Source: a virus. From it: a stretch of DNA of 64,000 nucleotides. The stretch lies in the IMG/VR virus record IMGVR_UViG_3300025150_000004, positions 64,001 through 128,000 of that record. The stretch is one strand, 5' to 3'. The notes beneath the pieces were generated by a model. The model worked only from the letters and a program-made list of their open reading frames with translations. It searched no databases and had not been told where the DNA came from. This document shows, in pieces, positions 4,473 to 37,102 of this stretch; within the stretch, counting starts at the first letter, position 1, and each line of letters begins with the position of its first letter. The position numbers were made by a program, and so were the translations under genes.

Positions 4473-4888
4473 TGGCGCTGAAGGACCGCAGAAGGGCCAA
4501 AGCCGAGCAGACCAATCCGGTTGACCGGGAGGTTCAGGGGCACTTGCAGGTAGCCCTCAAGGAGATCGACCGGGCCATGGCCGTTTACGGACGGATCTCC
4601 CGTAGTGCCCGCCAGGAGGACCAGCAGGTCGCCGGGCGGGCTCGGCAGAACAGGGCCATCCTCGAAGCGGCCAAGGCCCAGTTGTCTCGGGTGACCAACC
4701 TGAAGGCGGCTCTCGAACAAGACATTGACCTGCTCCCCGAGACCGTCAGGGAGCAGTTGTCCCGGGAAGCCAGTCTCAAGCGCCGGGCCGAGGATGATGC
4801 CAAGAGGCGGCAGCGCCAGACCGAGGAGTCCGTCCAGAATCTCCTGGCCTCGCTCGGAAAGGGTGCGTCGGGAGCGGCGGCTGAATGA
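4472..4888 (+). CDS. Hypothetical coiled-coil protein
   Basis: TAATG coupling at 4470-4474; its stop overlaps the portal start. Confidence 0.65.
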   Translation: MALKDRRRAKAEQTNPVDREVQGHLQVALKEIDRAMAVYGRISRSARQEDQQVAGRARQNRAILEAAKAQLSRVTNLKAALEQDIDLLPETVREQLSREASLKRRAEDDAKRRQRQTEESVQNLLASLGKGASGAAAE

Positions 4889-16937: not shown

Positions 16938-19900
16938 ATGGCGTTCATGAAGTACGCCAGGGCCGTGGTCGAGCACCCTCACGTCTCCCGACGTGAGTGG
17001 GGCCAGATCCGCACGGCAGGACGTTCCTTCGGGAAGGTCCCGAGTTTCGCCCGGACCCGGGTGAAGCTGGCGAGGGGGTCTGTCCCGACCAACCTGGTGG
17101 ACCAGGCGAGCACCATCTTCGGGGATGTGTTCGACCCGGGTCAGTACCTCCTGACCCATGCCACCATCGTGGCTTCGGTGGATGTGTTCCAGCCCCAGGG
17201 GATCAAGCTCGGTTCCCAGTTGGAGGGCGGGTTCGTCGTCAACCGCAAGTACGGGGACTTCCGGGTCGAGCCGAGGTGCGCCCAGTTCATCAACAACAAC
17301 CGGGACGCCTGGACTCGTGGTGTCCTCCTCAAGGCGTTCGAGACGTTCATCGGCGGGCACAACTTCGTCGAGCACGTCCAGATCGAGTCGATGTCCAAGG
17401 GGCGGATCATCGACGCAGTGGCCCGGGACATCGGGGACTCGGTCTACATCGACATCCTCATCGCCACGGACCGGAAGCACCGGGACCTGGTGACGGCCAT
17501 CGAGAACGGCAAGATGGGCACTTTGTCGATGGGGTGTTTCCTGCCCGGCACGCAGGTCACGATGGCGGACGGTCGCCGCATCGCCATTGAGGATGTGCAG
17601 CCCGGTGACATGGTGCTGACCCACAAGGGCCGTGCCCGTGAGGTGCTGAACAAGCAGATCAAGGGTGGCAAGTGGGATATGCGGACGGTACATGCTGTTG
17701 GGCTGGCATCCCCCATCACGTCCACAGGCAATCATCCCTACTACGTCCTTCGGCCCGCCGAAGTGTGCGCTTGCGGGTGTGGCGAGAGCCTGCCCGCTTA
17801 TGTTTCTTCTGCGAAGAAACCGACGACACGAAGCCTCACACGGCGGTTCAAGGTCGGACACGACAAACGTGTCCTGAACCCCAACAACACCTACTCGCTG
17901 GATGAGTTCAAGCGTCGTAAGGCGCAGATGGACGAGATCCAGAACCCCGAGTTGGTGAAGGTTCGGGCCGATGAACTTCGGGTAGGGGATTTCATCGCCT
18001 TCCCACGGGTGAAGGATGGTGAGCACACCCTTTCCGTCTCTGACGGCAAGGCCCGTCTGCTTGGCTACTTCTTGGCCGAAGGGTGCTTTGCTAAGGAGAA
18101 GGGGCGTCCCGTTCAGGTGACGTTCTGCTTCTCGATGGATGAGAAATCTACGTTCGTTGCCGAGGTGGAGGGCCTGCTCAAGCAAGAGTTCCCAGACAGG
18201 CGGAATGAGCCGTGGGTGCAGGAGCGGGTTGACAGCAACAACTGCATGGTTCACATCCGTGACCCAGAGGTTGCGGCGTGGTTCAAAGAGCACGGCGGCG
18301 AGTACAGCCCTGGTAAGCGCCTGTCGGCTGACGCCATGAACTGGTCGGTGGAGAGCCACAAGCACCTGATCGGGGCGTGGCTAAACGGCGACGGCCACCG
18401 GGCCAAGGCTCATGGTGGGTTCCTTGTGGGCACCACTGTCTCACTGGACCTCGCCAGCCAGATGCACGCCCTGATGGCGAAGTGCGGTTGGTTTGCCCGG
18501 TTCGAGGCCCGCATCGGGTCGAAGTCGGTCACGGTGGCCGAGGCAATCAACGGTGGTGTTGCTGTTCGGGATGAGGCGACGGGGCGGCTTCCGGCGTACC
18601 TGCTGACCATCGGGAACACGCAGTCGGTCGAGTTGCAGGGCTACTGCGCCAAGGCTCCCACCACGGCGAAGTACAGCAACCAGAACAACCGCACTTTTGA
18701 GGATTGGGTGGTCAGCCCGATCACGGCCATCGAGGAGAGTACCTACGAAGGTTGGGTCCACGACATGGAAGTGGAGGAGGACCACACCTATGTTGCTGTA
18801 GGCGCCTGTGTGTCCAACTGCACCGTCGATGGGACCATCTGCACGAAATGCGGGCACTGGGCGGCCGACGAGACCGAGATGTGCTTCCCGACAGGCACCC
18901 GAATCCTGATGGCGGACGGCAAGTACGTTCCCATCGAGGAGGTGGTCGAAGGGGATCTGGTCGTCACCCATACGGGGGCGATCCAGCCTGTCCTGCACAC
19001 GATGGGGCGACACCACGACGGCAACGTCACCGTGCTGAACGTCGAGGGCGTGCCTCAGCCGATTCGGGCAACGACCGGGCACCGTTTCTGGGTCATGCGT
19101 CCCGAAACGCACTGCCAGTGCGGGTGTGGGCAGTCGTTTCGGCGCACCGTCGAACACGAACGGGGGGCGTCACAGGCGTTCCAACGTCGGTTCCTGCCCG
19201 GACACAACAGCAAGGTGATTCCTTTCCCGTCCGGGTTGTTCGCCCCGGCTGACAGCAGGAACACGGGGGCCAATCTGGAGTTCGTCCCGGCGAAGGACAT
19301 TCGCAAGGGCGACTACCTGACGTTCCCCATTCCTCAGCAGGTCACGGCCTCTCCCGAGGCTACTGAGGACAAGGCTCGTCTCATCGGGTTCTTCTTGGCC
19401 GAGGGGAGCTTCATCAAGCGGGATGGGGTACTTGTCGGCGTGAGCTTCGACTTCGGGGCGCATGAGTACGGCTCCCTTGCTGTCGAGGTCGAGGATCTGC
19501 TCAACAAGGTCTGGGGTCGGGACGAGCGCCGCACGGTGGACTTTGACTGGCGGCAGAAGGTGGCGTCGGAGGGTGCCAAGCCAATCCGTCGTCGCAAGAA
19601 CAGTCGTCCTGTCCCCACCGATCTCACCTGTCCGTCGTGTAAGGCACCTTCGGAGTACGCCTACAATGTCCGGTTTAAGAAGGGCCAGGACGACTGCTAC
19701 CAGTGCAAGGTGTGCAACCGTCAGTGGGTCGAGGGGTCGGACCGGGCCGTGAGGGCTTGCCGCAATCTGACGGGGGAGTCCGCCTGTTCGGTTCGGCTGA
19801 TGTGTTCCGAGGCTGCTGAGTGGTTCCACACCTTCTGCGGGGAGTACGCCCACGGCAAGGCGCTGGCTCCCGAGGTCATGTACTGGCCGCAGGAGATCCA

Positions 19901-21362
19901 GAAGCACGTCCTGTTCGGTTGGTTGGGCGGGGACGGGACTCAGTCCCGGTTAGGGATCACGGGCAACACGGCGTCGTTCGATCTGATGAGCCAGATGCAC
20001 GTTCTGGCTGCCCGGTGCGGTTGGTATAGTCGCAAGCAGGTCACGTTCGACCGTCGAGCCGCCATCTTGGACGAGGTGGTCAACGGTTCCGGTCCGGTGA
20101 CGGTGCGAGATAGCAATGGATGGCTGCCTTCGTTCTCGTTGACCCTGCCCGAGCCTGCGGGCTTTGGTGGTGAGGTTAGGTTCACGGACCCCGAAAGCGC
20201 ACGGGTCACGTTGTCGGGTGTCACGGACGGTTTCAAGCGGGTGGGCAACTACCTGTTGTACCGGGTCCGAGAGGCATGGAACGAGTGCTTCTCCGGGCAG
20301 GTCCACAACATCGAGGTCGCCAAAGACAAGAGCTACGTCGTGGAGGGCATGGCCGTCCACAACTGCCCGCACATCAAGTACCAGAAGGGCAACACCTTCT
20401 TCGACGAGCAGGGTCGGCAGCACATCATCGCCGAGCTTTGCGGGCACGAGAGCCTCGACCCAACCGGCGGCGTCACCTTCATCGAGGCGTCGTGGGTTGA
20501 GACACCAGCCTTCACGGGAGCGGTCCTCCGCAACGTGATGGAGGCGACCGAGGAGACGGCCAAGAAGGCCGAGGCAGTTCTCAACTCCCCGCCCCCCCAG
20601 TGGTCCACCGCCGCCATGGCGAAGGCCGCAGGGATGACCAAGACGGGCGTGGGGATCGACGCCCTGGAGCGGGCGGCGCAGCAAGATGGCCGTGTCGTGG
20701 GCCGAGTAGCCCACGGTCCTCTGACTTCTCCCGAAGTCCTCTCTGTCGGGGCCAATCCTTCGATGGAGGCCGACCTGTTCCTGTCGGGATGGGACGAAGA
20801 GGACGACGAGGGGGCCGACGCCCCCGCTGCACCTCCGAAGGAGGAGGGCACCCCTCTCGAAGAGCTTCGCCAGGAGGTCAAGCAGCACCTCCTGAACGAG
20901 GTCAAGCGGGAGATCAAGGACGAGATGAGGAAGAAGGACGTGTCCGACCGCCTCGACTCCACGGCCCCCAACGACACGGTTCAGCATGAAGCTGATGGCC
21001 TCGGGACGCCCTCAAGATCCCGACAGCACGAGGCACGGGCCTACACGGCCGGGATCAACACCTTGGTCCGCACTGCTGCCTCGGACATCGATCTGATGGA
21101 GGCGGTTGCCGCCTTCAACAGGGAGGCAGGGGTTTCGGTCCCTGTCCCGCTTTACCGGGCGGCCCTCAAGGTGGGGCCGTCTACCCAGTTCTCGGGGTCT
21201 TCGACATCCGAGTTCGTCCGGGCCTGCCACGCCGCTCTGGGACGGCAGCCCAACACCACTGAGGTTCGGGTCATGGCCCGTCTCAGCCATCTGCTGTCCC
21301 GTCGGACTTCGGCCCGCACGGGGAACCACAAGGCAGTCGCCACAGAAGGAGCGTTGACATGA
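16938..21362 (+). CDS. Prohead (maturation) protease with two inteins; about 552 aa after splicing
   Basis: NNNRDAW, NFVEH and LSMGC motifs, FIEASWVETPAF, position upstream of scaffold and capsid. Confidence 0.85.
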   Translation: MAFMKYARAVVEHPHVSRREWGQIRTAGRSFGKVPSFARTRVKLARGSVPTNLVDQASTIFGDVFDPGQYLLTHATIVASVDVFQPQGIKLGSQLEGGFVVNRKYGDFRVEPRCAQFINNNRDAWTRGVLLKAFETFIGGHNFVEHVQIESMSKGRIIDAVARDIGDSVYIDILIATDRKHRDLVTAIENGKMGTLSMGCFLPGTQVTMADGRRIAIEDVQPGDMVLTHKGRAREVLNKQIKGGKWDMRTVHAVGLASPITSTGNHPYYVLRPAEVCACGCGESLPAYVSSAKKPTTRSLTRRFKVGHDKRVLNPNNTYSLDEFKRRKAQMDEIQNPELVKVRADELRVGDFIAFPRVKDGEHTLSVSDGKARLLGYFLAEGCFAKEKGRPVQVTFCFSMDEKSTFVAEVEGLLKQEFPDRRNEPWVQERVDSNNCMVHIRDPEVAAWFKEHGGEYSPGKRLSADAMNWSVESHKHLIGAWLNGDGHRAKAHGGFLVGTTVSLDLASQMHALMAKCGWFARFEARIGSKSVTVAEAINGGVAVRDEATGRLPAYLLTIGNTQSVELQGYCAKAPTTAKYSNQNNRTFEDWVVSPITAIEESTYEGWVHDMEVEEDHTYVAVGACVSNCTVDGTICTKCGHWAADETEMCFPTGTRILMADGKYVPIEEVVEGDLVVTHTGAIQPVLHTMGRHHDGNVTVLNVEGVPQPIRATTGHRFWVMRPETHCQCGCGQSFRRTVEHERGASQAFQRRFLPGHNSKVIPFPSGLFAPADSRNTGANLEFVPAKDIRKGDYLTFPIPQQVTASPEATEDKARLIGFFLAEGSFIKRDGVLVGVSFDFGAHEYGSLAVEVEDLLNKVWGRDERRTVDFDWRQKVASEGAKPIRRRKNSRPVPTDLTCPSCKAPSEYAYNVRFKKGQDDCYQCKVCNRQWVEGSDRAVRACRNLTGESACSVRLMCSEAAEWFHTFCGEYAHGKALAPEVMYWPQEIQKHVLFGWLGGDGTQSRLGITGNTASFDLMSQMHVLAARCGWYSRKQVTFDRRAAILDEVVNGSGPVTVRDSNGWLPSFSLTLPEPAGFGGEVRFTDPESARVTLSGVTDGFKRVGNYLLYRVREAWNECFSGQVHNIEVAKDKSYVVEGMAVHNCPHIKYQKGNTFFDEQGRQHIIAELCGHESLDPTGGVTFIEASWVETPAFTGAVLRNVMEATEETAKKAEAVLNSPPPQWSTAAMAKAAGMTKTGVGIDALERAAQQDGRVVGRVAHGPLTSPEVLSVGANPSMEADLFLSGWDEEDDEGADAPAAPPKEEGTPLEELRQEVKQHLLNEVKREIKDEMRKKDVSDRLDSTAPNDTVQHEADGLGTPSRSRQHEARAYTAGINTLVRTAASDIDLMEAVAAFNREAGVSVPVPLYRAALKVGPSTQFSGSSTSEFVRACHAALGRQPNTTEVRVMARLSHLLSRRTSARTGNHKAVATEGALT
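17535..18818 (+). mobile_element. Intein 1 of the protease (428 aa, LAGLIDADG)
   Basis: SMG|CFLPGTQVTMADG ... CVSN|C; LLGYFLAEG and LIGAWLNGDG; penultimate Ser instead of His. Confidence 0.93.
18882..20363 (+). mobile_element. Intein 2 of the protease (494 aa, LAGLIDADG)
   Basis: EM|CFPTGTRILMADG ... AVHN|C; LIGFFLAEG and LFGWLGGDG. Confidence 0.95.
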
Positions 21363-23023
21363 GCACTCGCAACCGTTCGACGTGGGCGGCGGACAAGAAG
21401 GCAGGTCAGGCACCTGCGGTCCCCGGCTACGGATCCGAAGACCAGGACCACCCGGCTCACAAGCCGGAGCCCGGCTACGCCGACTACAAGAAGGGTGACC
21501 CGGACGCCTGGGCCGAGACGCCGAACCCGCCCCCGTACCCCGAGGGCAACCCGCCGTCCGTCCCCGGCTACGACACCGAGGATCAGGACCACCCGGCCCA
21601 CAAGAGGAACCCCCGGGTGGAGAAGCTGTCCTCGCTGGTGGAGAAGAAGGCCAAGAAGGCCCTCGTCATCGCCAGCCACATGCTGGGCAAGGAGGCCACC
21701 AAGGAGGCCGTCGAGCTTCAGGCTCTCGACCTCATGGACATGGACGATGCCGTGATGGAGGCGACCCTCAAGCGCCTCGGCGGCGGCTTCATGGCCGACG
21801 ACGACATGGACCCGATGTACGACATGGAGCCCGAACTCGACGAGGTCGAGCCCATGGCGTGCGGGGCCATGTACGGCCTCGAAGACATGGAGATGGAGGG
21901 GCCGATGGGCGTGTTCGCCAACGCCCTCAAGGCCATCGCCACCGACCTGAAGGCCCTCAAGGACGCCAACCAGAACCAGTACCCCGGCCCGACGCTCGGG
22001 GGACCGGCGAAGGACGAGGCAGGTGCTCGGGCCGAGGCTTCCCAGGTCTCCGGCCTGGAGGCCAAGGCTCGTGCCGAGGGTGCCGCAGCGGCCAAGGGCG
22101 AGGTCCACGCCTCTGTCTTCGACGGCATGGACAAGGACCGGGACGGCTTCGTGACGGCCTCCGAGTTCACGGGCAGCAAGGCGATCTTCGCCGCCATCGA
22201 CGTGGACGCCGACGGCATCATCTCCAAGTCCGAGTACGTCGCCGCCTTCTCGGCCACCGCCAAGAAGGCCGAGGACGACGAGGACGAGGATGGCAAGGAG
22301 GCCGCCAAGAAGGCCGAGGACGACGAGGACGACAAGGGCAAGGAGGCCAAGAAGGCCGACGACGCCATGCTCGACCTCATGGCCAGCCTCTCCGACGACG
22401 AGATCGCCATGCTCCACCAGGCGTCCGAGGACGACAAGGAGAACGGCGACGACGAGGAGACCGCCGCCAAGAAGGCCGCTGCTCGACTCGCTCAGCTTCG
22501 GGCCGAGGCCGGGTGCGACAAGCTCCCGCCCGCCCTGAAGGAGAAGTGCGAGGAGAAGTCCGGCAAGGGCGACGACAAGGGCGACGACAAGGGCAAGGAG
22601 GCCGCCAAGAAGGCCGACGACGACGAGGACGAGGACGACGAGCCCGAGGACAAGGGCGAGGAGTCCGAGGGCGGTGACGAGGACGACGACAAGGAGGCCG
22701 CCAAGAAGGCCACCGAGGACGCCGCCTTCTTCGCCTCCACCGGGGACCCCATGGGCCTCGGCGGGGACCCGTCCCACGGTCTGAACCTCACGGCCGAGGA
22801 CGAGGCGGTGCTCAACGAGATCTTCGCCGCCGACGTGCCGAACACGGCGTCCGCCCTCCCGGGTGACGCCGTCGAGGCGGCCATGAAGCCCCAGCCGAAG
22901 CAGGCGAGCACCGGCTCGACCGCCCCGGTCGGCAACATGACCCGCACGGCCTCGGGCGGGATCTCGGACCTCTCCCAGCTTTGGGAGTCGGCTCCCGACG
23001 TGTCCAAGGTCTTCGGCGTCTGA
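21359..23023 (+). CDS. Scaffolding/core protein with an EF-hand pair and acidic repeats
   Basis: Lies between protease and capsid genes; very acidic low-complexity sequence; loops DKDRDGFVTASE and DVDADGIISKSE. Confidence 0.7.
   Translation: MSTRNRSTWAADKKAGQAPAVPGYGSEDQDHPAHKPEPGYADYKKGDPDAWAETPNPPPYPEGNPPSVPGYDTEDQDHPAHKRNPRVEKLSSLVEKKAKKALVIASHMLGKEATKEAVELQALDLMDMDDAVMEATLKRLGGGFMADDDMDPMYDMEPELDEVEPMACGAMYGLEDMEMEGPMGVFANALKAIATDLKALKDANQNQYPGPTLGGPAKDEAGARAEASQVSGLEAKARAEGAAAAKGEVHASVFDGMDKDRDGFVTASEFTGSKAIFAAIDVDADGIISKSEYVAAFSATAKKAEDDEDEDGKEAAKKAEDDEDDKGKEAKKADDAMLDLMASLSDDEIAMLHQASEDDKENGDDEETAAKKAAARLAQLRAEAGCDKLPPALKEKCEEKSGKGDDKGDDKGKEAAKKADDDEDEDDEPEDKGEESEGGDEDDDKEAAKKATEDAAFFASTGDPMGLGGDPSHGLNLTAEDEAVLNEIFAADVPNTASALPGDAVEAAMKPQPKQASTGSTAPVGNMTRTASGGISDLSQLWESAPDVSKVFGV
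22255..22712 (+). repeat. Imperfect coding repeats (KEAAKKA-E/D-DDED)
   Basis: Repeated GGCAAGGAGGCCGCCAAGAAGGCCGA-like units. Confidence 0.85.
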
Positions 23024-23914: not shown

Positions 23915-24787
23915 ATGAGCGTTTCCAACGCAGTGAAGCAGCGGGTCATCGGCGAACTGATCCAGTCCCCCCAGGGACGGGCGAAGCTCGCCGCCTCGAT
24001 GACCCAGCCCCTCCGCCTCCGCCGGGACTACGCCTCGGTCGGCCGCAAGACCTTCCTGGTCGAGCAGCTTCCCGATGGCGCACTTCCCATCTACGACAAG
24101 GACCCCGACGTGACGGCGTTCGTGGTCGGCGAAGAGGGCGAGAACATCCTGGCCGTCACCAAGCCGAGGCGGGTGATCTTCCCGCTGTTCGAGATCGCCA
24201 GCAACCCGGAGATCCCGCTGACCCAGATCAAGGAGCGGCGCTTCGACCTGATCGAGCGTGCCCAGGATCTCGGCCGGGCTCAGGTGCAGGCGGCCGAGGA
24301 CGAGCGGGTGTTCGCCACCCTCGACGCCATGGCGACGGCGGGCTTCGACTCCCTCCCGGGCCAGACCAACGCCGACATCCCGGTGATCGCTCCGATCTCG
24401 GGTGCGGTGCTGGCCGACGCCTTCTCCCTCGTGGAGCGGCACGACCTGCGGGTGGCTCGGGTGTACATGAACGCCCGGGACTTCGCCGACATCCGCAAGT
24501 TCGGGCGGAACATCCTCGACATCGAGACCCAGGCCACCCTGCTCAAGACGGGCCTCATGGGCGTGCTGTACGGCGCTCAGATCGTCGTGAGCCGCCTGGT
24601 GCCGGTGGGCACGGTCTACGTCTGCTGCGAACCCGAGCACTTCGGCCGCATCCCGGTCCGTACCGAACTGACGGTGCTCTCCGCCGACGACCCGAAGGCC
24701 CGCACCATCGGCTTCTCGATCTTCGAGAACCTGGGCATCGGGGCCTTCAACCCCCGGGGCCTCGCCCGTCTCACGGTCAACCGCTAA
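23915..24787 (+). CDS. Major capsid protein (HK97 fold)
   Basis: AAGGAG RBS, strongly biased codons, QAAEDERVF spine helix, GVLYGAQIVVS and AFNPRGL C-terminal motifs, followed by a terminator. Confidence 0.88.
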   Translation: MSVSNAVKQRVIGELIQSPQGRAKLAASMTQPLRLRRDYASVGRKTFLVEQLPDGALPIYDKDPDVTAFVVGEEGENILAVTKPRRVIFPLFEIASNPEIPLTQIKERRFDLIERAQDLGRAQVQAAEDERVFATLDAMATAGFDSLPGQTNADIPVIAPISGAVLADAFSLVERHDLRVARVYMNARDFADIRKFGRNILDIETQATLLKTGLMGVLYGAQIVVSRLVPVGTVYVCCEPEHFGRIPVRTELTVLSADDPKARTIGFSIFENLGIGAFNPRGLARLTVNR

Positions 24788-24926: not shown

Positions 24927-26891
24927 GTGTTTACATTTGAAGTCAGAGAGGTTGAAGTGGTGGAACTGTCGTCTGAACTCCTTCGGGAGTTGTACCTGGA
25001 ACAACGGTTGTCCGAGGCTCTTATCGCAGAGCGGTTTGGAACCTACCAGGTGAAGATCGGCAGGCTGAGGAAAAAGTGGGGAATCCCCACCCTCTCCAAA
25101 ACCGAGAGGGTCGCAGGTGCTTTACCTGATCTCACCGAACAGCAACGGGAACTCATTATGGGCTCGTTACTTGGTGACGGCTGGATGCGGGCCAGCAGTG
25201 AACTGGCCGCAGGGTTTGGCGAAGGCCATGCCGTTTCCCAGTCTGCTTACACGGATTGGAAAGCTGATTTACTTGAGCCGTTCACCCGCTCCAGATATCA
25301 CGGGAAAAAGACAGACGGGGAAACGGGCAAGGTCTATCACAGTTGGTCTTTTGCGACGGCCTGTTGTACCCAGATTCGTCCTTATTATGACCTTTTCTAC
25401 CCCTCTCCAGCCCGTAAACGGCGTTTCCCTCCGAATCTGCCTGATTTAATGACCCCGTTTATGCTGGCTGTTTGGTACATGGATGATGGGAACCTAACGG
25501 AGCGAAATGAGCCCAGAATCGCTTTTGGTTTGGATGACCGGAGTTTGTATCGGGGGCTGAAGGCTTTGTCGAAGCTCGGTCTCAAGCCCAGGGTCTACGG
25601 TCAGGGTTCCGATCAGGCCATCCATTTTCCCAAGCAGAGGATGAAGTTCCGAGCCCTCATCGAGACTTACGTCCCTGAGTGCATGACCCACAAACTCCCG
25701 ATCGAAACTGATCGTCAGGCTGGCGATCGGAGAGCCAGGGTTTTGACGTTGGATAAGGCAGCGCATCTCTACCGGGGCGGTCTCAGTGCGGAAGCGATAG
25801 CACAGGTCTACGGGGTCGGGACCTCCACCGTGAGCCGCCGCCTGAAAGATGCTGGGGTGCAGAAGCGCCGATCAGGCCCTCACTCGAAGAAGTTGACCCG
25901 GGAGGCTGCTGAGGCTGTGCTGGGGTCCTTCGACCCATCTCGGTGGTCTACCTTGACTGAGCAAGAGCAGGATCGGTGGGTAAGGGAAGCGTTCCAGGTG
26001 TTACGGACGCTAGGGTTCCCATTTCCGAAGCAGGGTTCGGTTTCCATTGCTAAGGAGTTGTCTAAGGTCAGGGAATCCCAGATGTTCCTGGAAGATAGTC
26101 GTATCATGCCGGTACGACGGGTAGGGATCGGACTCTGCAAAGAGTTTTTCCCCAACCGGTACCGGGCCGTTTCGATGACCAAAGCCGTATCGGCTTGGGA
26201 ATCCTGGCATCGGGATTCTGACCTTAAGCGGGCTGTTCGCTTTCAGTTCAAGGTGGGGGACCCAGTGCTTCCTCATCGGGTACTCCGGGCGGTGACCATG
26301 AATTGTCGGACGCCAACCGTATTTCGTCCGACCGTGGCCCGGTTCATCTATGAGAGATTCCTGGAGCCGGGTCAGGTGACCTGGGACCCTTGTTCTGGGT
26401 ATGGGGGTCGTCTGTTAGGTGCTGTGGCTGCCGGAGTCCGGTACGTTTCGACCGATGTTGACCCGGAGACCGTGGAGGGGAACTTGGCTCTAGCCAAGGC
26501 TTTGGGGGCGGATGTGTCAGTGATCTGCTGTCCGGCCGAGGCGTCAGACCCGCCACCTGTGAATTTGGTTTTCACGTCTCCGCCATATTTTCATCAGGAG
26601 CAGTACGAGGGTGGCTCGCAGTCGTGGAAGAAATATCCTGGGTTTGATATTTGGGTAGATGGTTTTCTACGGCCGATGGTCGAGAAAGGAGCCAAGGTTC
26701 TCCTTCCTGGTGGTCATTGGGTGATGAACATTGCCGATGTGAAAAACCGGAAGGGGTCGTTCCCGTTGGTGGTTGCCGCTCGTCAGGTCATGTCCGAGGT
26801 GGGGTTAACAGAGATGTCGATGTTGAAAATACCATTACCTTCGCTGAACCGGAAAGACCCCTGGGAGCCGGTCTTGGTGTTTCGGCGGTAG
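24927..26891 (+). CDS. HTH + LAGLIDADG endonuclease + HTH + amino (N4C/N6A) DNA methyltransferase fusion
   Basis: GSLLGDG and VWYMDDG LAGLIDADG motifs; DPCSGYGGR (motif I) and FTSPPY (motif IV); lower GC than its neighbours; the true start may be the GTG near 24957-24960. Confidence 0.85.
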   Translation: MFTFEVREVEVVELSSELLRELYLEQRLSEALIAERFGTYQVKIGRLRKKWGIPTLSKTERVAGALPDLTEQQRELIMGSLLGDGWMRASSELAAGFGEGHAVSQSAYTDWKADLLEPFTRSRYHGKKTDGETGKVYHSWSFATACCTQIRPYYDLFYPSPARKRRFPPNLPDLMTPFMLAVWYMDDGNLTERNEPRIAFGLDDRSLYRGLKALSKLGLKPRVYGQGSDQAIHFPKQRMKFRALIETYVPECMTHKLPIETDRQAGDRRARVLTLDKAAHLYRGGLSAEAIAQVYGVGTSTVSRRLKDAGVQKRRSGPHSKKLTREAAEAVLGSFDPSRWSTLTEQEQDRWVREAFQVLRTLGFPFPKQGSVSIAKELSKVRESQMFLEDSRIMPVRRVGIGLCKEFFPNRYRAVSMTKAVSAWESWHRDSDLKRAVRFQFKVGDPVLPHRVLRAVTMNCRTPTVFRPTVARFIYERFLEPGQVTWDPCSGYGGRLLGAVAAGVRYVSTDVDPETVEGNLALAKALGADVSVICCPAEASDPPPVNLVFTSPPYFHQEQYEGGSQSWKKYPGFDIWVDGFLRPMVEKGAKVLLPGGHWVMNIADVKNRKGSFPLVVAARQVMSEVGLTEMSMLKIPLPSLNRKDPWEPVLVFRR

Positions 26892-29493: not shown

Positions 29494-29694
29494 GCTCGGC
29501 CTCCTTCGGCTGTTGGCCAGCACATGAAGGAACGGTCAGACAGCAGGCCGAGCAGAGCTTGGGAGGCCGGGGCCTCTTGCTAATAGAGAGTCGGGATAGG
29601 CTCGCAACCGAAAGGAGTGCTGTTGTGAGGGGGTAGAGCGGCCCTTGGCGTGGGGTAGATGGGGAGGACAGCACGACCCCGAACGGAGGGAAAC

Positions 29695-30876
29695 ATGAGC
29701 GACGGGTTCACGTTCCACGGCTTCCAGCGAGGCCCCCAGATCTACGCCACACGGCACACCATCCTCCTTCTCCTGGCTCTCAACGACATCTGGAAGCAGG
29801 AGAAGGCGAAGTACCAGTTCACCGGAGGCTTCGACCCGGCGAGGCACTTCCACAAGCCGACCCTGCTCGCTGACCTGGCCAGAGCCATCGCCCCGGTCAT
29901 CAAGAAGGTGCTGACCCCAGGGGACGTGTACGCCCACCTGCTCTACCTGTCCGAGCGGAAGCTCGGGTCGGACACGGTGATGGTGCGGAACCATCCCGGC
30001 AACGAGAAGGCCGGGGAGCCCATTTTCCAGATGGGCAAGGCGGGCGAGGAACTCTGCGACATCATCGACAACCGTGGCGTCCGGGCGTTCATCGAGAGCG
30101 ACCCCACCAACTGGCACGCCCTGGTGATGTACGCCCGCCTCGTGGAGTCCGGCCAGTGCAGCCCGTCCGTCTGGACGCCGGAGAACATCGGCAGCCTGAC
30201 CGGCCTCACGGAGAGCCAGATCCGCAAGGCGATCAAAACCCTCCAGCAGGGGTTCACGAGCAAGGCCGGGGACCAGGAGTTCACGCTCGCTGCCGGGTCT
30301 CTCGTGGTGGAGGGGACCCGTCGTTTCCCGAAGTACAAGCTGGCTGCGAGCCTGCGGGTCTCCGCCAGCCCCGAGATCGGTGACCTCGACTTCGAGGAGG
30401 ACCCGAAGGCCCTCCGTCAGAAGGCCCAGACGGCGACGTTCCAGCAGATCTACGGCGGGAAGGGGCCACAGGGGAACGGCCGGGCGGCAGCAGCGGCGGA
30501 CGCCTTCATGGAGGAGTTCACCAAGCCCGAGGCCGACCCCGAGCCGACCCCCAGCGTTCCCGCATCCCGGCCCATCGGAGCCAAGGCCAACATCTCCGAC
30601 CAGGAAGTGGCCATCCTCCAGGCGGAGGCGATCCGACTCCGCATCTCGCTCGACTCCCTCATGACCCTCATCATCAAGACGGGCATCGAGGGCATCGAAC
30701 GGGAGAACGTCAACCGGGAGACGGCCGAGGCCAAGCGTCGGGAGGCCGAGGAGGCCCTGCGGAAGGAGGAGGAGGAGGCCCAGCGTGCGGCTCAGGCAGC
30801 AGCCGAGCGGCTGGCCGAGATCCAGCGGCGGCGGGCCGCCCTGGGGTCCGAGACAGGCGCATCACCGGCCCCCTAG
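29695..30876 (+). CDS. Hypothetical DNA-binding protein (HTH-like segment, C-terminal coiled coil)
   Basis: GGAGGG RBS; IGSLTGLTESQIRKAIKTL. Confidence 0.65.
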   Translation: MSDGFTFHGFQRGPQIYATRHTILLLLALNDIWKQEKAKYQFTGGFDPARHFHKPTLLADLARAIAPVIKKVLTPGDVYAHLLYLSERKLGSDTVMVRNHPGNEKAGEPIFQMGKAGEELCDIIDNRGVRAFIESDPTNWHALVMYARLVESGQCSPSVWTPENIGSLTGLTESQIRKAIKTLQQGFTSKAGDQEFTLAAGSLVVEGTRRFPKYKLAASLRVSASPEIGDLDFEEDPKALRQKAQTATFQQIYGGKGPQGNGRAAAAADAFMEEFTKPEADPEPTPSVPASRPIGAKANISDQEVAILQAEAIRLRISLDSLMTLIIKTGIEGIERENVNRETAEAKRREAEEALRKEEEEAQRAAQAAAERLAEIQRRRAALGSETGASPAP

Positions 30877-30903
30877 AAAAACGACTCGGGTCGAAAAAAG
30901 TTG

Positions 30904-30932
30904 TTGACGGCGGATCCGGGTTCAAGTACAAC
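30904..30932 (+). promoter_or_regulatory. Sigma70-type promoter
   Basis: TTGACG-N17-TACAAC with an upstream A-tract. Confidence 0.7.
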
Positions 30933-30938
30933 GTCTCT

Positions 30939-31371
30939 TGCCGGTTGGGACTGCCCCCGAGAAATCGAGGATGGTTCCCAAACGGAGCACCGAGGGTCGA
31001 AGGTTCGCAACCTGAAACCGGAGGTGAGTGGGAGGTCGGGCGAAGGCCATTCCCACGGAAGGCGCTGACCATTCAGGTGGTCATGGGCTTCACCTGAAAA
31101 GGAAGTCCTGGGTTCTGAAACATGGACCCGAACCCCATGGCGGGGAAGATAGCGAGCGCCGCTATCGTTCTCACCCGCCTTCGCAGAGGTCAACCGGGCA
31201 ATCGGCGAGCCAAAGCGACCCTGCCCTCCCCGGGCAACCGGGAGAGGGAGCCAGTCGGGTAACCGGGTGGTGGGACGGGGGAACTCAAGGACCCGTAACA
31301 GGGTCCAGCGGTTCAGCAATGCCCAGCGGGTCCGGCCGTCTTCGGCCGGACCCGCTGGGCATTCTTGTTTT
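30939..31371 (+). ncRNA. Candidate large structured non-coding RNA, family unknown
   Basis: No credible ORF; many nested hairpins; bounded by a promoter and a terminator. Confidence 0.65.
31318..31371 (+). terminator. Intrinsic terminator
   Basis: Perfect 21-bp stem AATGCCCAGCGGGTCCGGCCG with TCTT loop, followed by CTTGTTTT. Confidence 0.85.
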
Positions 31372-31446
31372 AGGACCCCGGAAAAGGTCTACTGTCCTCG
31401 GTATCGTGACGCCAGCCCTTTCGGCTCCACGAGAATGAGGCGAAGA

Positions 31447-31686
31447 ATGCCGACCATCCGGCGACTGGACGTTCCCATCATCCTGGGTTGTCAACCCCCG
31501 GCAGGTCAATTCGCCAATGCGTTTCGAATCCTGAACGCCGACTCGGGCTGCGTGCTGGAGTTCCTGGTGTACTCCCCTCGTGAGAACAAGGCATTCCTCG
31601 TTCATCGCATCCGGCTCTCCCAAGAACTCCTTCCCGTCATCAAAGACCAGGTGAGGTGCGCTTTGGACCCCCAACACGCTTGTTGA
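31447..31686 (+). CDS. DUF3467-like protein
   Basis: FANAFRI..VLEFL..LVHRIRL; similar to 42282-42548. Confidence 0.55.
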   Translation: MPTIRRLDVPIILGCQPPAGQFANAFRILNADSGCVLEFLVYSPRENKAFLVHRIRLSQELLPVIKDQVRCALDPQHAC

Positions 31687-31723
31687 TCGGGGCATGGGTA
31701 GAGTGTGGAGCTACGGAGGTTTG

Positions 31724-33034
31724 ATGATGACGACGTTCCAGACCGGCCAGTTTCAGCCCCTCAAGGCCATCTCGGAGTTCAACTTCGGTCCCCTGAACGG
31801 GATGACCATCAAGGATGGAACCGAGATGGACTTCGACGGCACCACCCTGCGGATGATGGGGAAGGAGTACGGCTGCCCGGAGTTCTCCATCGCCATCCGG
31901 GCCGGATTCGTGAAACCCCGCTCCGACACCACTTCGGCTCCGCCGAAGCCCACCTCCAACGTGGAGGTGAAGTCGGCGGTCGGCCACGGGGAGACCCGAG
32001 AGACGGTCCGTATGGGGGCCATCGTCGAGGAGGAGCAGGTCGTCGGCTCCGTGGCTGGGAGCAAGGGCCGCCGAGAAGCCGCCCAAGACGCCCGGTCCCA
32101 GCAGGTGACCAGCCAGCCGCAGGTGAGCCCGGACCCGGAGATCGAGGCAGCCCTGATGCCGCAGGCTCCTCCTCCACCTCGGCAACTGGACCCCAGGGAT
32201 GTGACCTCTGCCTCCGTCGCCGCCCAGTCCATGCAGGGGAATCGGCCCCGGACGGTGGAGGAGGCCGACGCCCTCAACGCCGCCGCCATCCAGGCGGAGT
32301 TGAACAAGCCCGTGAACACCAACTACATCAAGGGCGGCACCCGGCACGACAAGCTGGATGAAGATGATGCCGCCCCGACCGTCGGGGGTGGCAAGTTCAA
32401 GCTCGTGACCGCCGACGGGGCGAGCCAGGGGACCGTGGTGGGATCGGTGAAGTCCGGGGCGCACTCCGCCCGAGTCGGTCGGGACGGGGAGGCCGTGAAG
32501 ACGGCCGCCTTGGACGTGACCAAGGCGACGGCCAGCACGGTCGAGTCGGGGCTTCAGGAGCAGAAGGTGGTCGAGGGGGTTCGAGGACTCGAAGCCAAGA
32601 CCCGTGCGGTGCCGTCGGGCATCCAGAAGGTCGGGGCTCAGGTGATGCCGGAGCGCCCGGACATCATGGTCCAGCCCATCAAGACGGCCCATTCCACGGT
32701 CATCACCGAGGGTGAAGACATCCGCACGGTCGGTGCCCAGGGGCAGACGGGGGATGTGTCAGAGAGCCGGTCCGGGGACGAACTGACCGATCTCCTGCCC
32801 GACGCCATCGTGGCGTCTCCCCCCAAGCCGAAGAAGTCCAACCCCGACGACGAGGTCGCCGAGATCGTGGCGGGCTGGGACAAGCAGCGGCAGTGGAAAA
32901 AGCGGGTCAACGAGGCCGTGGAGTTCTACGCCGACTGGCCCGCCGCCCTGGACGCCATCTGCGCCATCGAGTCCGAGGCTGTGGTCAAGCACATCCGCAG
33001 CCAGGTCGCCAAGAAGCAGGCCGAGAGCGCCTGA
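31724..33034 (+). CDS. Hypothetical protein
   Basis: GGAGG RBS and high-GC3 codon usage. Confidence 0.75.
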   Translation: MMTTFQTGQFQPLKAISEFNFGPLNGMTIKDGTEMDFDGTTLRMMGKEYGCPEFSIAIRAGFVKPRSDTTSAPPKPTSNVEVKSAVGHGETRETVRMGAIVEEEQVVGSVAGSKGRREAAQDARSQQVTSQPQVSPDPEIEAALMPQAPPPPRQLDPRDVTSASVAAQSMQGNRPRTVEEADALNAAAIQAELNKPVNTNYIKGGTRHDKLDEDDAAPTVGGGKFKLVTADGASQGTVVGSVKSGAHSARVGRDGEAVKTAALDVTKATASTVESGLQEQKVVEGVRGLEAKTRAVPSGIQKVGAQVMPERPDIMVQPIKTAHSTVITEGEDIRTVGAQGQTGDVSESRSGDELTDLLPDAIVASPPKPKKSNPDDEVAEIVAGWDKQRQWKKRVNEAVEFYADWPAALDAICAIESEAVVKHIRSQVAKKQAESA

Positions 33035-33103
33035 TCCCTGCCGGTATTCCGCCTATGGTCAGGCCACGGTAGAGGTTTCGCACCTCCGCCGTGGAGGACC
33101 CGA

Positions 33104-33511
33104 GTGGCGACAGGATCCAACAAAAAAGCCAGTAGCGAGGCCGCTTGGGCGCTCATCATGGGGGGCGTGGCCTCAGCCCGTCTGGAAGCCCATCGGCTGA
33201 AGCACCTGGTCAGCCGATGTGAGAAGCTCGTCGAGCACTCCACGCACCGGGAGCACCTGTACCAGGTCGCCGGGGACATCATCGTGGACATGCCGGGCCG
33301 CCTTCGCAAGCTGGAGGTGGCCCTCGACCGGACGGCTCTGGCTCTGTCAGGGATGGGGGAGGAGTTCCTCTCCGCCAGGCTCCCGCTGTCCGAAAAGCAG
33401 CTTGTCGAAGAAGCCACCCAGCCGGGCTTTGGTGGCCACCGTCACCGGCATTCGGTCAAGACAGTCGCCCGGGAGTGGCTCCTCCGGCAGCTTCGAGAGG
33501 CTGGTAGATGA
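33104..33511 (+). CDS. Hypothetical helical protein ending in a TVAREWL motif
   Basis: GGAGG RBS downstream of a CGGT-N7-CTAT motif. Confidence 0.75.
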   Translation: MATGSNKKASSEAAWALIMGGVASARLEAHRLKHLVSRCEKLVEHSTHREHLYQVAGDIIVDMPGRLRKLEVALDRTALALSGMGEEFLSARLPLSEKQLVEEATQPGFGGHRHRHSVKTVAREWLLRQLREAGR

Positions 33512-36429
33512 CCCGGCAGGCCGACAAGTTCCCGGCCTTGGGGCTTCCATCGGAAGCGGGACCCTGTTTCGTAGTCCGGCGGATCGAGGACAACGTCCGC
33601 TCCCCCTCAGTTCGGGACACCTTGGAGAGGAAGGTCGAGCGAGGCCAAGACCTGACGAATCCCGAGGCCCATGCGGTGTACGACCGGGAGGTCGAACGGG
33701 GTCCCGGCGGTCTCATCTCGAAGTTCGAGATCTCGTCTCACGCCCAGTACCGGATGGACCTGCGGGGCATCACGGTCCCCGAGGTCCGCTTCGTGTTCCA
33801 GCGGTTCCAGAAGGAACTCAATGACTGGAAGTCCCGACAGGATCCCGCCTACGACAGGGTGGCTCGGGCAATCCAGCGAGGGGAGCCCATCGAGTACGAG
33901 GACAAGCGGCTCCAGATGTTCATTGCCTTCACCATCCTCCAGAAGGGCTTGGCGAAGGTAATCACGGTCTACTGGAAGGGAATGCCAGACCCCAAGGCTC
34001 CAGGGGTCTGTGTGGTCCCGCACAGCCACCAGAAGCACGCACGGGACCCGGTGCAGGACTGGGGCACCCAGACATACACCAAGGACCCGACGGACAACCC
34101 GGACAACCGGGAGAAGCAGCAGGTGCTACCGACCCCGCCGTGGAGTCGGAGCAAGCCGACGGGGAGGCCCCAGTACAACGTCCCAGGACCCAGTGGCACT
34201 GGGCCAGGCGAGAAGAACATCCACCAGTACCGTATGCGGACCAAGGGGGAGCCGGGGAAGGAGCACCCCCAACCACCGGCTCGAACCTCCCCTGTTCGGC
34301 GGCCGGAGGTGACCGGCGAGGACTGGGAGACGGCTGGTTGGTATGACCGGCTCGACCCACAGGTGGAGGAGCCTTTCCTCGAAGCCTCAATGAAGGGCAA
34401 GCCGTATCCTGGGGCGAACCGGCAGAGGGAGCAGCGAGGCCCCGCTCGAAGGTATTACCGGCTTCGGTACAAGCGTCAGCGTCAGCAGTACAAGCGGCGG
34501 ATGAAGCTGTGGTATCGGCGCTATCGCAAGAACCCCAGGTATTTGAGGGACCAGGAGCGCCGGGACGATCACCCGAAGAGGTTCGAGCGCAAGCCCGGCG
34601 GCGGCTACGTGCGGAACCAGGACCGAAGCAAGGCTTGGCGGGACAAGCAGAAGAAGGCCAGCTTGGCAGAGCCCATCCCTGTGTTCTTCCTCCCGTTGCA
34701 GGAGTGGGGGTGGTTCGAGGGTGTCGGCGACGAAGACCTGATGGAGATCCGTGTTGATGGGAGCCTGTTCCAGCTTCCCATTGACCTGTTCTTCGACCAG
34801 GTGGAGGGCGACCCGGACATGGCGGATGCCCTCTTGGCCTACCTCGACGAGCACTACGAGTTCTCCGAGGGTGAAGGTGAGGACATGGCCATCGACGACG
34901 CAATCGAGGCTCTCAAGAAGATCGCTTTCCAGGTGAAGCTCCGCTACCGGCCCGAGAAGCGCCAGCGGAAGACCCGTGGATTGAAGAAGTGGAAGCAGAA
35001 GATGCAGTACATGCGGAACCGGGCGAAGTCCAAGCGACAGACCCGGGTCCGGTACAAGCGTCTCAAGAGGCTCCCGGCCTTCAAGAAGCAGCAGCAGATC
35101 CGCCGCAAGCACCCAGAGAGGTTCAAGCGGCGGATGGCCGAGGTGCTCACCGCCCCGGACATCGCTTTCGTGGTGGGTGAGGAACTGGACCTGGGGTACG
35201 TCCACAGCGTCAGCCCCATGACCGGGCTCGTGACGTTCCATCGGACCTCGAACGGGGAGTACCTCTCCGACTCTCTGGAGTCCCTGGCAGTCGAGGATTT
35301 CATGGCGGCCGTCGGCTTCCTCTCGGAGGCCGACGAGGAGGCCATGTTCAAGCTCATCGACGTGGAACTGGGAGAGACGGCCTGGTCCGGTGAGTTGACC
35401 GAGGACGGTCTTCGTGGGTCAGCGGCCCTCATGGGCATCGACTGCGATTCCCCGAAGTTCCAAGACCTCTGCGAGAAGCTGGTCGGCAAGACCCAGATCG
35501 CCGACATGGACCCAACCGAAGTCGCCCTGGTGAACTCGGTGGTCATCCATCAGACGGTCTATGACGACGATGCGATGGAGGTTGGAGAGTTCCCCGACCG
35601 GGACCGGGCAAAGGAGCCGACCGAGGCCGACTCTTTCATGATCGACCCCCAGGACGACGACTACATCTTCGGCAGGGTCAACCTCCCCGAGGACTACGCT
35701 CACCTGGTTCAGCGGACGGCTCGGCGGTGGGTCGCCCGGCAGGCGGAGATGCTCTATTGCAAGGAGCCCACCGACCAGGATTCGGACGACACCTACGACC
35801 GTGGGGATGACAGGCTGGAGAAGAAGGTCCATCCGCCTCACTCCGAGCGCCTCGACCAGCCCTCCGTGGAGGAGAACCCGGGTTCGGCCAAGGTCATCCC
35901 GTGGAACCATCCCGACATGGTGAACAACCGGGCGGGGATGGTGCGCCTGGCGGCCCGCATCCACGAGATCGTGGAGAAGTGCGGGGAGGATGTCTTGACC
36001 CGCTCAAGGGGGCTTCGTGTGAAGCTCCGCCGGGTGGATGCACGGAACGCTGTGTGGCTGTTCGACGTGCCCGGGAAGTCCGGCACCCATCGGGTGCGGA
36101 TCAAGGCTGTTCGTCACGGCAACATTCGGGACGTGGGCAAGGCCCACGTCAAGGTGTCCTGCTCCTGCCCGTTCTGGCAGTGGCAGGGGCCGGAGCATCA
36201 CGCCAAGACGGGGGATTACCTGTTCGGGAGCCCGAGGGGCACGGCTGCCAAGCCGGATGTGAAGGACCCCGGCGGGAAGCACGGGGCCTGCAAACATGTT
36301 TTGGCTTGCTTTGATTGGGTTATAGGCCACAACTGGCGGGTTCCCCCAAGACCACGGAAGCGGGCGTCAACAGATCGAGTAGTTGCACAGTTCCTTCGGC
36401 GGCAGCTTCAGGAGGCGTGGTGTGGCTAG
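33508..36429 (+). CDS. Multi-domain protein: DUF4258/RelE-like RNase-fold domain, two very basic tracts, acidic domains, SWIM Zn finger
   Basis: ISSHAQYRMDLRGIT...KVITVYW; SCSCP...CKH. Confidence 0.75.
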   Translation: MTRQADKFPALGLPSEAGPCFVVRRIEDNVRSPSVRDTLERKVERGQDLTNPEAHAVYDREVERGPGGLISKFEISSHAQYRMDLRGITVPEVRFVFQRFQKELNDWKSRQDPAYDRVARAIQRGEPIEYEDKRLQMFIAFTILQKGLAKVITVYWKGMPDPKAPGVCVVPHSHQKHARDPVQDWGTQTYTKDPTDNPDNREKQQVLPTPPWSRSKPTGRPQYNVPGPSGTGPGEKNIHQYRMRTKGEPGKEHPQPPARTSPVRRPEVTGEDWETAGWYDRLDPQVEEPFLEASMKGKPYPGANRQREQRGPARRYYRLRYKRQRQQYKRRMKLWYRRYRKNPRYLRDQERRDDHPKRFERKPGGGYVRNQDRSKAWRDKQKKASLAEPIPVFFLPLQEWGWFEGVGDEDLMEIRVDGSLFQLPIDLFFDQVEGDPDMADALLAYLDEHYEFSEGEGEDMAIDDAIEALKKIAFQVKLRYRPEKRQRKTRGLKKWKQKMQYMRNRAKSKRQTRVRYKRLKRLPAFKKQQQIRRKHPERFKRRMAEVLTAPDIAFVVGEELDLGYVHSVSPMTGLVTFHRTSNGEYLSDSLESLAVEDFMAAVGFLSEADEEAMFKLIDVELGETAWSGELTEDGLRGSAALMGIDCDSPKFQDLCEKLVGKTQIADMDPTEVALVNSVVIHQTVYDDDAMEVGEFPDRDRAKEPTEADSFMIDPQDDDYIFGRVNLPEDYAHLVQRTARRWVARQAEMLYCKEPTDQDSDDTYDRGDDRLEKKVHPPHSERLDQPSVEENPGSAKVIPWNHPDMVNNRAGMVRLAARIHEIVEKCGEDVLTRSRGLRVKLRRVDARNAVWLFDVPGKSGTHRVRIKAVRHGNIRDVGKAHVKVSCSCPFWQWQGPEHHAKTGDYLFGSPRGTAAKPDVKDPGGKHGACKHVLACFDWVIGHNWRVPPRPRKRASTDRVVAQFLRRQLQEAWCG

Positions 36430-37102
36430 GTCTGTTTGTATTTTGACCTGCCCTTGTTGCGGTCAAGGGTTCCTTCGGCGGCAGAGCATCGTAGTGGCCA
36501 TGCAGAAGCGAAATCCCGACGTGGTATTGTCCTGCGGCAAGGCGTGTAGTGACATGCTGAAGCGGCGTCCTATCAACATCATGGACCGCAAAGCATTTGA
36601 GTACACCGTTGGCGTGGTACTTGGGGATGGATCGGTAGATCGGGCCGTGAGGGTGGCCGTTGGTCTTCAGGACGAAAATTTTGTGCCTATTTTGCGTCAG
36701 TTCTTCCAACGGGGAGTTGGGGTAGACCCTGGTGTGCTGCGGAATGAAGAAGCAAGATCTTTGTCTGTGAACCTGAGCTTCAAGGCGGCTGGCGACCTTT
36801 ATCGGTCGTTCAAGCATGGCCCTTCATGGATACTGGAAGATGTGCGCCACCCGGCGATGGTGTTGGCCGGGTTGTGCGATACGGACGGGGGGTGGGAGAA
36901 AAAGAAAGGGCGGCGGGTCGCTTTTTGCATCACGCAGAAGAACAACGGGAATCTGGAGAAGTCCCTACCCCTATGGTATCAAGTCGGGCTGAACCCGTCG
37001 ATTAGGTATTACGCTCCTGACCGGGCGGTACTTCGGATACCCTCTCCTCAACGTGAGCGGTTCCTTGATGTCGTCTCGCTCCAGCACCCCAGGAAAATCT
37101 GA
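36422..37102 (+). mobile_element. Free-standing LAGLIDADG endonuclease with N-terminal Zn finger
   Basis: VGVVLGDG and LAGLCDTDG; CPCC..C...C; lower GC; GTG after GGAGG. Confidence 0.85.

Follow-up and report, generated by a model that had tools for sequence, protein, structure and literature searches.

What is encoded by a stretch of about 430 nt that contains no gene, in the middle of the structural genes of a very large phage? The stretch in question covers positions 30904-31372 (plus strand) of the window, that is, of the whole 64,000-nt piece of DNA that was analysed, which corresponds to bases 64001-128000 of record IMGVR_UViG_3300025150_000004 (142,891 bp). CheckV estimated the completeness of this record at 27% and that of three related records (63-111 kb) at 14-25%, and a value of 27% for a 143-kb record implies a phage genome of ~0.5 Mb (about 400-500 kb). 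A first-pass annotation had proposed that the stretch is the gene of a highly structured RNA, possibly of a new class. The data presented below indicate that it is probably (with a probability of roughly 0.8) a stand-alone gene for a structured, pseudoknotted non-coding RNA of ~430 nt, which belongs to a new family found in huge phages, would be transcribed by the host, and would act in trans.

Gene neighborhood and non-coding character

The RNA gene was located among the morphogenesis genes, downstream of the head genes and ahead of the next structural block (Table 1). In the related phages this block was made up of an 83-aa gene, a ~430-aa gene, a ~135-aa gene whose product was 57-78% identical across all relatives, and a 700-1200-aa gene, followed by the gene for a Zn_ribbon_8 protein. 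No Pfam or PHROG match was obtained for the 83-, 446-, 135-, 973- or 405-aa ORFs of the window. The AlphaFold model of the 446-aa neighbor was poor (pLDDT 56), and no match to the profile of this protein was found among PDB sequences. Only small ORFs were present at 48.4-50.9 kb of the window, and the phage record contained a large tRNA array. The domains of the 1474-aa ORF suggest at least one intein, and the 654-aa ORF may be a methyltransferase gene that contains an intein or a fused homing endonuclease.

In every relative contig examined, gene callers placed no gene in the gap. In the alignment of the group A homologs described below, 52 of the 64 internal gap runs were 1-2 nt long, and there was no reading frame that was open in every member. 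The region is not protein-coding, and this explanation was rejected on the basis of the frame-breaking gaps and the lack of a shared open frame. The minimum free energy (MFE) of the plus strand was -238.7 kcal/mol (z -7.45 relative to dinucleotide shuffles, with 0 of 100 shuffles as good), and the z score of the minus strand was -5.3. Each homolog, when folded alone, repeated the same hairpins in its own MFE fold.

Table 1. Positions of the RNA elements, the neighboring genes and related features (window coordinates unless a locus is named).
Feature	Position	Strand	Remarks
Terminase large subunit	2254-4215
Portal	4885-6792
2806-aa ORF			After portal, before 1474-aa ORF
1474-aa ORF	16938-21362	+	Hint/intein-splicing and LAGLIDADG_3 domains; adjoins head genes
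554-aa protein, head module	21359-23023	+	EF-hand calcium-binding motifs, E ~7e-9
Major head protein	23915-24787
654-aa ORF	24927-26891	+	LAGLIDADG_2, E 6e-22; weak DNA-methylase and HTH matches at ends
DUF5658 gene, PHROG-704 exonuclease gene		-	Between 654-aa ORF and 405-aa ORF
405-aa ORF	29659-30876		Directly upstream of RNA candidate
A-tract GAAAAAAG	30893-30900	+	UP-element-like, just 5' of -35 hexamer
Promoter-like site (from sequence)	-35 30904-30909; -10 30927-30932	+	TTGACG, 17-nt spacer, TACAAC
H1, 5' hairpin	30941-30985	+	CCG/CGG and GGGA/TCCC stems, GAAA-capped tip
H2 enclosing H3	30988-31026	+	CACC/GGTG enclosing AGGTT-CGC-AACCT
H4	31028-31056	+	GTGGG/CCCAC plus GGTC/GGCC, loop GGGCGAA
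Pseudoknot	31061-31065 x 31156-31160	+	GGCGC x H9 loop GCGCC, 5 bp
H5, H6, H7	31066-31083; 31085-31108; 31110-31129	+	Core hairpins, consecutive
H7 loop	31116-31123	+	TGAAACAT
Conserved junction and H14 5' strand	31130-31136	+	GAA, then CCCC (31133-31136)
H8 enclosing H9	31139-31179	+	GGCGGG/CCCGCC enclosing GATAGCG-AGCGC-CGCTATC; asymmetric internal loop, conserved ..GA
H11 enclosing H10	31181-31218	+	TCGC/GCGA enclosing GNRA-capped CCGG-GCAA-TCGG
Three-way junction	31219-31274	+	CCC/GGG closing H12 (31224-31248, GCAA loop) and H13 (31251-31270, GTAA loop)
H14 3' strand	31277-31280	+	GGGG, inside conserved GGGACGRGGGGA; pairs with CCCC 31133-31136
H15	31289-31306	+	GGACCC-GTAACA-GGGTCC
Intrinsic terminator	31318-31372	+	21-bp stem 31318-31338/31343-31363, UCUU loop, then TCTTGTTTTA
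83-, 446-, 135-, 973-aa ORFs	31435-36429	+	Gene block after RNA
239-aa ORF	36383-37102	+	LAGLIDADG_3; another homing-endonuclease-like gene in structural region
Mini RNA	L009 1475-1665		Only ~120-nt core
~240-nt unit	L097 8085-8345	-	G000:C1, outside window; CGAAAAAAGTTGTTGAC then CATAGT; tail GGGGGCTTCGTCGTTTAAG
CCCACCG..CGGUGGG hairpin	L012 3080-3125; L016 2235-2277; L022 95-144; L028 290-328; L031 3540-3592

Homologs and conserved structure

Relatives of the 446-aa neighbor were found at identities from 74% down to 31%, and their contigs were examined. In the closer relatives the gene order was a ~400-aa gene, a gene-free gap of 530-580 nt, a ~80-aa gene, and a ~430-aa gene, and the gaps aligned with the RNA region of the window. 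Two groups were distinguished. Group A consisted of six sequences (the window, L004, L005, L006, which was identical to L007 and L018, L094, and a mini form in L009), and group B of eight (L010, L011, L012, L014, L016, L024, L027, and L028), from contigs in which the neighbor protein was 31-36% identical. The group B RNAs were 480-515 nt long and had the same promoter type and terminator tail as the window RNA. These 14 distinct sequences came from about a dozen huge-phage genomes, all of them in contigs that shared the 446-aa gene, and there was one RNA copy per record. A further contig, L022, contained a 3' fragment only.

The mini RNA was made up of the pseudoknot strand, H5, H6, H7, a CCC/GGG closing helix, and H8/H9. 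It had its own promoter (TTGCAC-N17-TATAAA) and terminator, and the 83-aa gene was missing from its locus. The RNA was missing altogether at the expected place in three relatives (L095, L020, and L031), and together with the core-only form of L009 this indicates that the RNA is accessory.

A blastn search of 50,697 phage records gave no match, and searches of viral contigs with each flanking protein singly found nothing. When viral contigs and species-representative genomes were scanned for three conserved strings, only known members and chance matches were returned, as checked with nhmmer. Profiles built for nhmmer gave no link between groups A and B, so a covariance model, R1, was built with only the group A core as input (H5, H6, H7, and H8/H9; 123 positions) and searched against 309 kb of loci and the remainder of the record. 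R1 returned exactly 14 matches, the six of group A and the eight of group B, full-length and at the expected positions, and nothing else. The window scored 124.6 bits (E 8e-29), seven group B members had E values from 2e-7 to 7e-4, and L010 had an E value of 0.85. All 14 members matched the set of features taken to define the family: the pseudoknot, H5, H6, H7 with its UGAAA-A loop, the AAACC junction, H8/H9, and detection by R1. Groups A and B are one previously undescribed RNA family of very large phages.

Covariation among the collected homologs, a check that the first-pass annotation had called for, was strong. In an initial RNAalifold analysis with four sequences, 33 of the 94 predicted pairs were compensatory. 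A model assembled by hand placed 14 helices (67 pairs) in register in a MAFFT alignment of the five full-length group A sequences; 94.2% of its cells were paired, and 23 of the 67 pairs (39 cells) had changed on both strands. None of these measures was reached by any of 500 shuffles, and controls in which the helices were slid were 32-51% paired. For H8, H10, H11, and H12, shifts of 1-3 columns brought the strands into pairing in every sequence. In the alignment of all 14 sequences, 92.2% of cells were paired and 25 of 33 pairs were compensatory (102 cells); this alignment was fitted to the R1 structure, which favors pairing, and holds only 14 sequences, but its controls were still far below the observed values (0 of 500 shuffles as good, slid controls 33-53% paired).

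The pseudoknot was evaluated in the 13 of 14 members that had a recognizable H9 loop, L010 being the one without. The longest or joint-longest Watson-Crick complement of this loop lay just 5' of H5, 82-96 nt upstream of H9; for L011 the longest complement chosen by the script was elsewhere, and a 5-bp complement at the pseudoknot position was read by hand. In group A the pairing was GGCGC(U) with (A)GCGCC, changed in L005 to GGCAC with GUGCC, and in group B it was GAUGG with CCAUC, changed to GACGG with CCGUC in L011 and extended to GAUGGA with UCCAUC in L024. In other words, there were two compensatory events within the groups and a complete swap between them. The pseudoknot encloses hairpins H5, H6, and H7. 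Further 3', the long-range helix H14 was CCCC/GGGG in the window and L005, as opposed to CCUC/GAGG in L004, L006, and L094 (alignment pair 208-365), and it was formed in L005's own MFE fold. H14 closes three arms, namely H8/H9, H11/H10, and the H12/H13 three-way junction, and these are followed by H15 and the terminator.

The core hairpins H5-H7 were kept in both groups and in the mini form, with 17 of 18 pairs compensatory in the 14-sequence alignment; the UGAAA-A of the H7 loop was nearly invariant, and a conserved AAACC junction led into H14. In H8/H9, 8 of 15 pairs were compensatory and 97-98% of cells were paired across the 14 sequences. The 5' domain (H1-H4) and the 3' arms differed between groups A and B and were absent from the mini form, which indicates that it is the core that carries the function. 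The peripheral hairpins were variable, and several of them were GNRA-capped.

Within the 5' domain, H1 was the weakest part of the structure model. It was predicted in every homolog's own MFE fold and had a GNRA cap in four of the five group A sequences, but its 5' strand was lost in L005, the three pairs of H1a had no compensatory change, and no covariation was found in the H1 stem pairs beyond H1a or in the 5'/3' closing helix. H2 had a compensatory CG to UA change (alignment pair 57-93), by which CACC/GGTG became CATC/GATG, and the H3 loop in the relatives was TCACA. In H4, six of nine pairs were compensatory and 100% of cells were paired. Among the 3' arms, H11 was TCAC/GTGA in L004 and CCGGGG/CCCCGG in L005, the H10 loop was of the GNRA type in all five group A sequences, H13 covaried, and H12 paired in five of five sequences after small register shifts. 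The CCC/GGG stem of the three-way junction was invariant and so showed no covariation. In H15, all six pairs formed in each of the five sequences, two of which needed a 1-nt shift, and the changes were GC/GU/AU, AU/CG, and CG/UA.

Six of the helices listed in the first-pass annotation were conserved and covarying: AGGTT-CGC-AACCT, GTGGGA..TCCCAC, TGACCA..TGGTCA, GGCGGG..GATAGCG-AGCGC-CGCTATC..CCCGCC, CCCGG-GCAA-CCGGG, and GGACCC-GTAACA-GGGTCC. Two others were not the conserved pairings. AGGTGAG/CTTCACCT (AGGUGAG/CUUCACCU in RNA letters) was replaced by the CACC/GGTG helix with its covariation to CATC/GATG, and in place of GGGTTC/GAACCC the GGGTTC strand pairs with GGACCC, with TGAAACAT as the hairpin loop.

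Several additional interactions were considered and rejected. The first RNAalifold run had given a long-range GUCCU/GGGAC helix, but the local H6, which covaries and is common to group B, took its place. A kissing interaction between the H4 and H6 loops had no covariation, the change in L005 fits the pseudoknot better than a self-dimer of the H9 loop through GCGC, and the geometry of the H8/H9 internal loop was unsuitable for a K-turn.

Known RNA classes, transcription and gene arrangement

A cmscan search with Rfam 15 (4227 families) at gathering thresholds gave no match in the window and none in 11 related loci; the models without a match included GOLLD, ROOL, OLE, raiA, HEARO, 6S, SRP, the riboswitches, and the self-cleaving ribozymes. 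At E ≤ 10 only terminator-hairpin noise was returned in place of anything meaningful. The rest of the record, at gathering thresholds, yielded only tRNAs, including those at L097 4239-5046 (minus strand, outside the window). The first-pass proposal of a new class transcribed by host RNA polymerase was supported by the lack of an Rfam match, the covariation among homologs, and the conservation of a host-type promoter in them.

Individual classes were also examined. ARAGORN found no tRNA or tmRNA in the window, in line with the earlier statement that the RNA lacks tRNA or tmRNA ends, and no tmRNA in the 143-kb record; the Rfam tmRNA models were silent, and a tag frame ending in AA or AV plus stop was absent in 12 family members. 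A tmRNA, whether one-piece or permuted two-piece, was rejected on the basis of having neither a tRNA-like domain nor a tag ORF. RNase P RNA was rejected as well: with the type A, type B, and archaeal models, its sole match was 9.8 bits to the terminator hairpin, relative to a gathering score of 84, and no P4-type helix with CR-I and CR-V was recognized in the RNA. A group I or II intron was also rejected: the Rfam intron models were silent, the region had its own promoter and terminator, and in relatives without the full RNA (L095 and L009) the flanking genes were shorter and not fused. The LSU rRNA model RF02541 found nothing in the record at E ≤ 10, with matches in 13 of 14 control genomes, and a mimic of 23S rRNA domain I was rejected on this basis.

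It is very improbable that the region is a highly divergent member of one of these classes (RNase P RNA, tmRNA including the two-piece alphaproteobacterial form, a group I intron, or an rRNA-domain mimic). Translation-related RNAs would fit a phage with a large tRNA array. The likeness to RNase P RNA includes the setting in a genome rich in tRNA genes, the size of a few hundred nucleotides, a core built from long-range helices and a pseudoknot, and variable GNRA-capped arms. Short strings are also alike: GGAAGUCCUGGG resembles RNase P CR-I, and GGGGAAACCC (in group B), CUGAAACAU, and GCGAGCG resemble 23S domain I. However, the CR-I-like string GGAAGUCC showed no conservation in group B and forms local pairs within H6, the only RNase P match was the terminator hairpin noted above, and the RNA gene, which has its own promoter and terminator, has no exons to fuse.

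The promoter-like and terminator elements that were said to bracket the RNA, TTGACG-N17-TACAAC and a 21-bp stem, were both located in the sequence, and the -35 and -10 elements recurred in the homologs. TTGAC was preserved in 12 of 13 homolog promoters, the -10 was mostly TA(C/G)AAC, and A-tracts recurred 5' of the -35. A generic E. coli-type sigma-70 scan did not call the promoter of the RNA gene, since the last T of the -10 hexamer is missing. The promoter sequence agrees better with the RpoD consensus of Caulobacter, TTGaCgS / GCtANAWC (quoted in PMC8144410), than with that of E. coli. This fit provides a lead to the host, and the promoter letters hint that the host may be alphaproteobacterial.

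The terminator scan found the hairpin as well and counted 20 pairs. All homologs finished with a GC-rich hairpin followed by TTTCGT(C/G)GTTT(A). The U-tract is interrupted (UUCGUCGUUUAA), and termination may therefore be partial. As a separate observation, a CCCACCG..CGGUGGG hairpin followed by UUUCGUCGUUUAA was almost letter-identical across distant phages (Table 1), and in L031 this hairpin was also found 3' of a coding region. With its interrupted U-tract and unvarying sequence, this hairpin seems to be more than an ordinary terminator.

A ~240-nt unit that immediately precedes the tRNA array of the record is also flanked by the string CGAAAAAAGTTGTTGAC and the tail GCTTCGTCGTTTAAG. This unit ends in a terminator tail of the type found in the RNA gene, so the tRNA genes sit behind a terminator-like hairpin. 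That the RNA gene and the tRNA array have a promoter and terminator design in common hints at use of the host polymerase by the phage.

The same design raises the question of whether the RNA is instead a cis-acting leader, in which promoter, RNA, and terminator form a checkpoint ahead of the structural operon (83-, 446-, 135-, and 973-aa genes) that is read through after antitermination. Models for such an arrangement are the lambda PR'-6S RNA-tR' unit with Q and the put RNAs of HK022. As in these phages, there would be a short terminated transcript behind a strong promoter just upstream of late structural genes, and the twin unit with a near-identical promoter and tail ahead of the tRNA array suggests a recurring promoter-leader-terminator design. 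Partial termination at the interrupted U-tract would also agree with a leader, as would the position of the RNA in group A, where it is directly upstream of the operon and co-oriented with it. A leader would be expected in this position in every genome, but in L011 a convergent exonuclease gene directly follows the RNA and in L010 opposite-strand genes follow, leaving nothing downstream to read through into, and in the other group B loci the arrangement was loose, with 0.5-1.4 kb and other genes between the RNA and the next conserved gene. Furthermore, the operon was kept in relatives without the RNA (L095 and L031), and no alternative (antiterminator) pairing with the 5' strand of the terminator was seen. 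The lambda and HK022 leaders are small or have no conserved elaborate fold, whereas a pseudoknotted fold of 430-500 nt with 25 of 33 core pairs covarying is far beyond what known antitermination leaders need. A leader is unlikely on this evidence, and a stand-alone gene is the preferred explanation of the locus.

The neighboring genes were also examined as possible partners of the RNA. No conserved protein partner adjoining the RNA was found. The 83-aa protein and the upstream protein were rejected in this role, since the 83-aa gene was also present where the RNA was absent (L020 and L031), and the upstream genes differed between the groups, those of group B being unrelated to the 405-aa protein. 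These results bear on the possibility of a guide or scaffold RNA for a nearby protein, such as a TnpB/IscB omega RNA, an IS110 bridge RNA, or the non-coding RNA of a retron or defense RT. The length of 0.4-0.5 kb and the heavy structure do resemble omega RNAs and RT-associated RNAs, and a ~400-aa gene ends just upstream in group A. This was nevertheless the least probable of the explanations considered: the flanking 405-, 83-, and 446-aa proteins belonged to no Pfam or PHROG family, the 405-aa gene had no counterpart upstream of the group B RNAs, the RNA had its own promoter and no overlap with the 3' end of a gene, and the Rfam model HEARO (IscB-associated omega RNA) did not match.

Possible function and comparison with other large RNAs

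For a stand-alone gene, the arrangement of elements suggests that the host sigma-70 RNA polymerase would transcribe the RNA from its own promoter (A-tract, -35, and -10) and stop at the intrinsic terminator, with the transcript start and the RNA ends as predicted from the sequence. This would yield a stable, trans-acting RNA. Its invariant unpaired nucleotides, which are the UGAAA-A of the H7 loop, the AAACC junction, and the ..GA bulge of H8/H9, may form one binding or active site, and the peripheral arms may hold this putative site in shape. By analogy with other large, covariation-rich RNAs of bacteria and phages, its most likely role during infection would be that of a ribozyme or of the RNA core in a particle or assembly. 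No motif for catalysis or ligand binding was recognized in the RNA.

A more specific proposal, which is possible but tentative, is that the family is a new catalytic or self-assembling class of huge-phage RNA, in which the ~120-nt pseudoknotted core would be the functional unit. Its members could be ribozymes that work on host or phage RNA, for example on tRNAs by way of the T-loop-like UGAAA in the H7 loop, or they could form RNA-only multimers similar to ROOL and GOLLD. The latter are large ornate RNAs, often carried by phages or prophages, which form RNA-only multimers as observed by cryo-EM (PMC12286853). Like them, the window RNA is large, stand-alone, heavily structured, and phage-carried, with many peripheral hairpins. 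In contrast to them, it matches neither Rfam model, is smaller (430-500 nt), and comes from GC-rich huge phages. Among smaller RNAs, the pRNA of phi29 is likewise a structured RNA encoded by a phage, and the window gene is in the morphogenesis region; pRNA differs in being ~174 nt long, in being found only in phi29-like phages, and in having its own Rfam model, which does not match the window RNA.

RNAs of several hundred nucleotides with covariation this dense are rare in bacteria and phages. Most of those with a solved function are ribozymes, riboswitch-like sensors, or the cores of ribonucleoprotein machines. GOLLD, ROOL, OLE, and raiA are among the unexplained large RNAs, and a new class restricted to phages of 400-500 kb enlarges this set. 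The family is also tractable, as the ~120-nt mini form, together with the pseudoknot, defines a small core suited to expression, probing, imaging, and assays.
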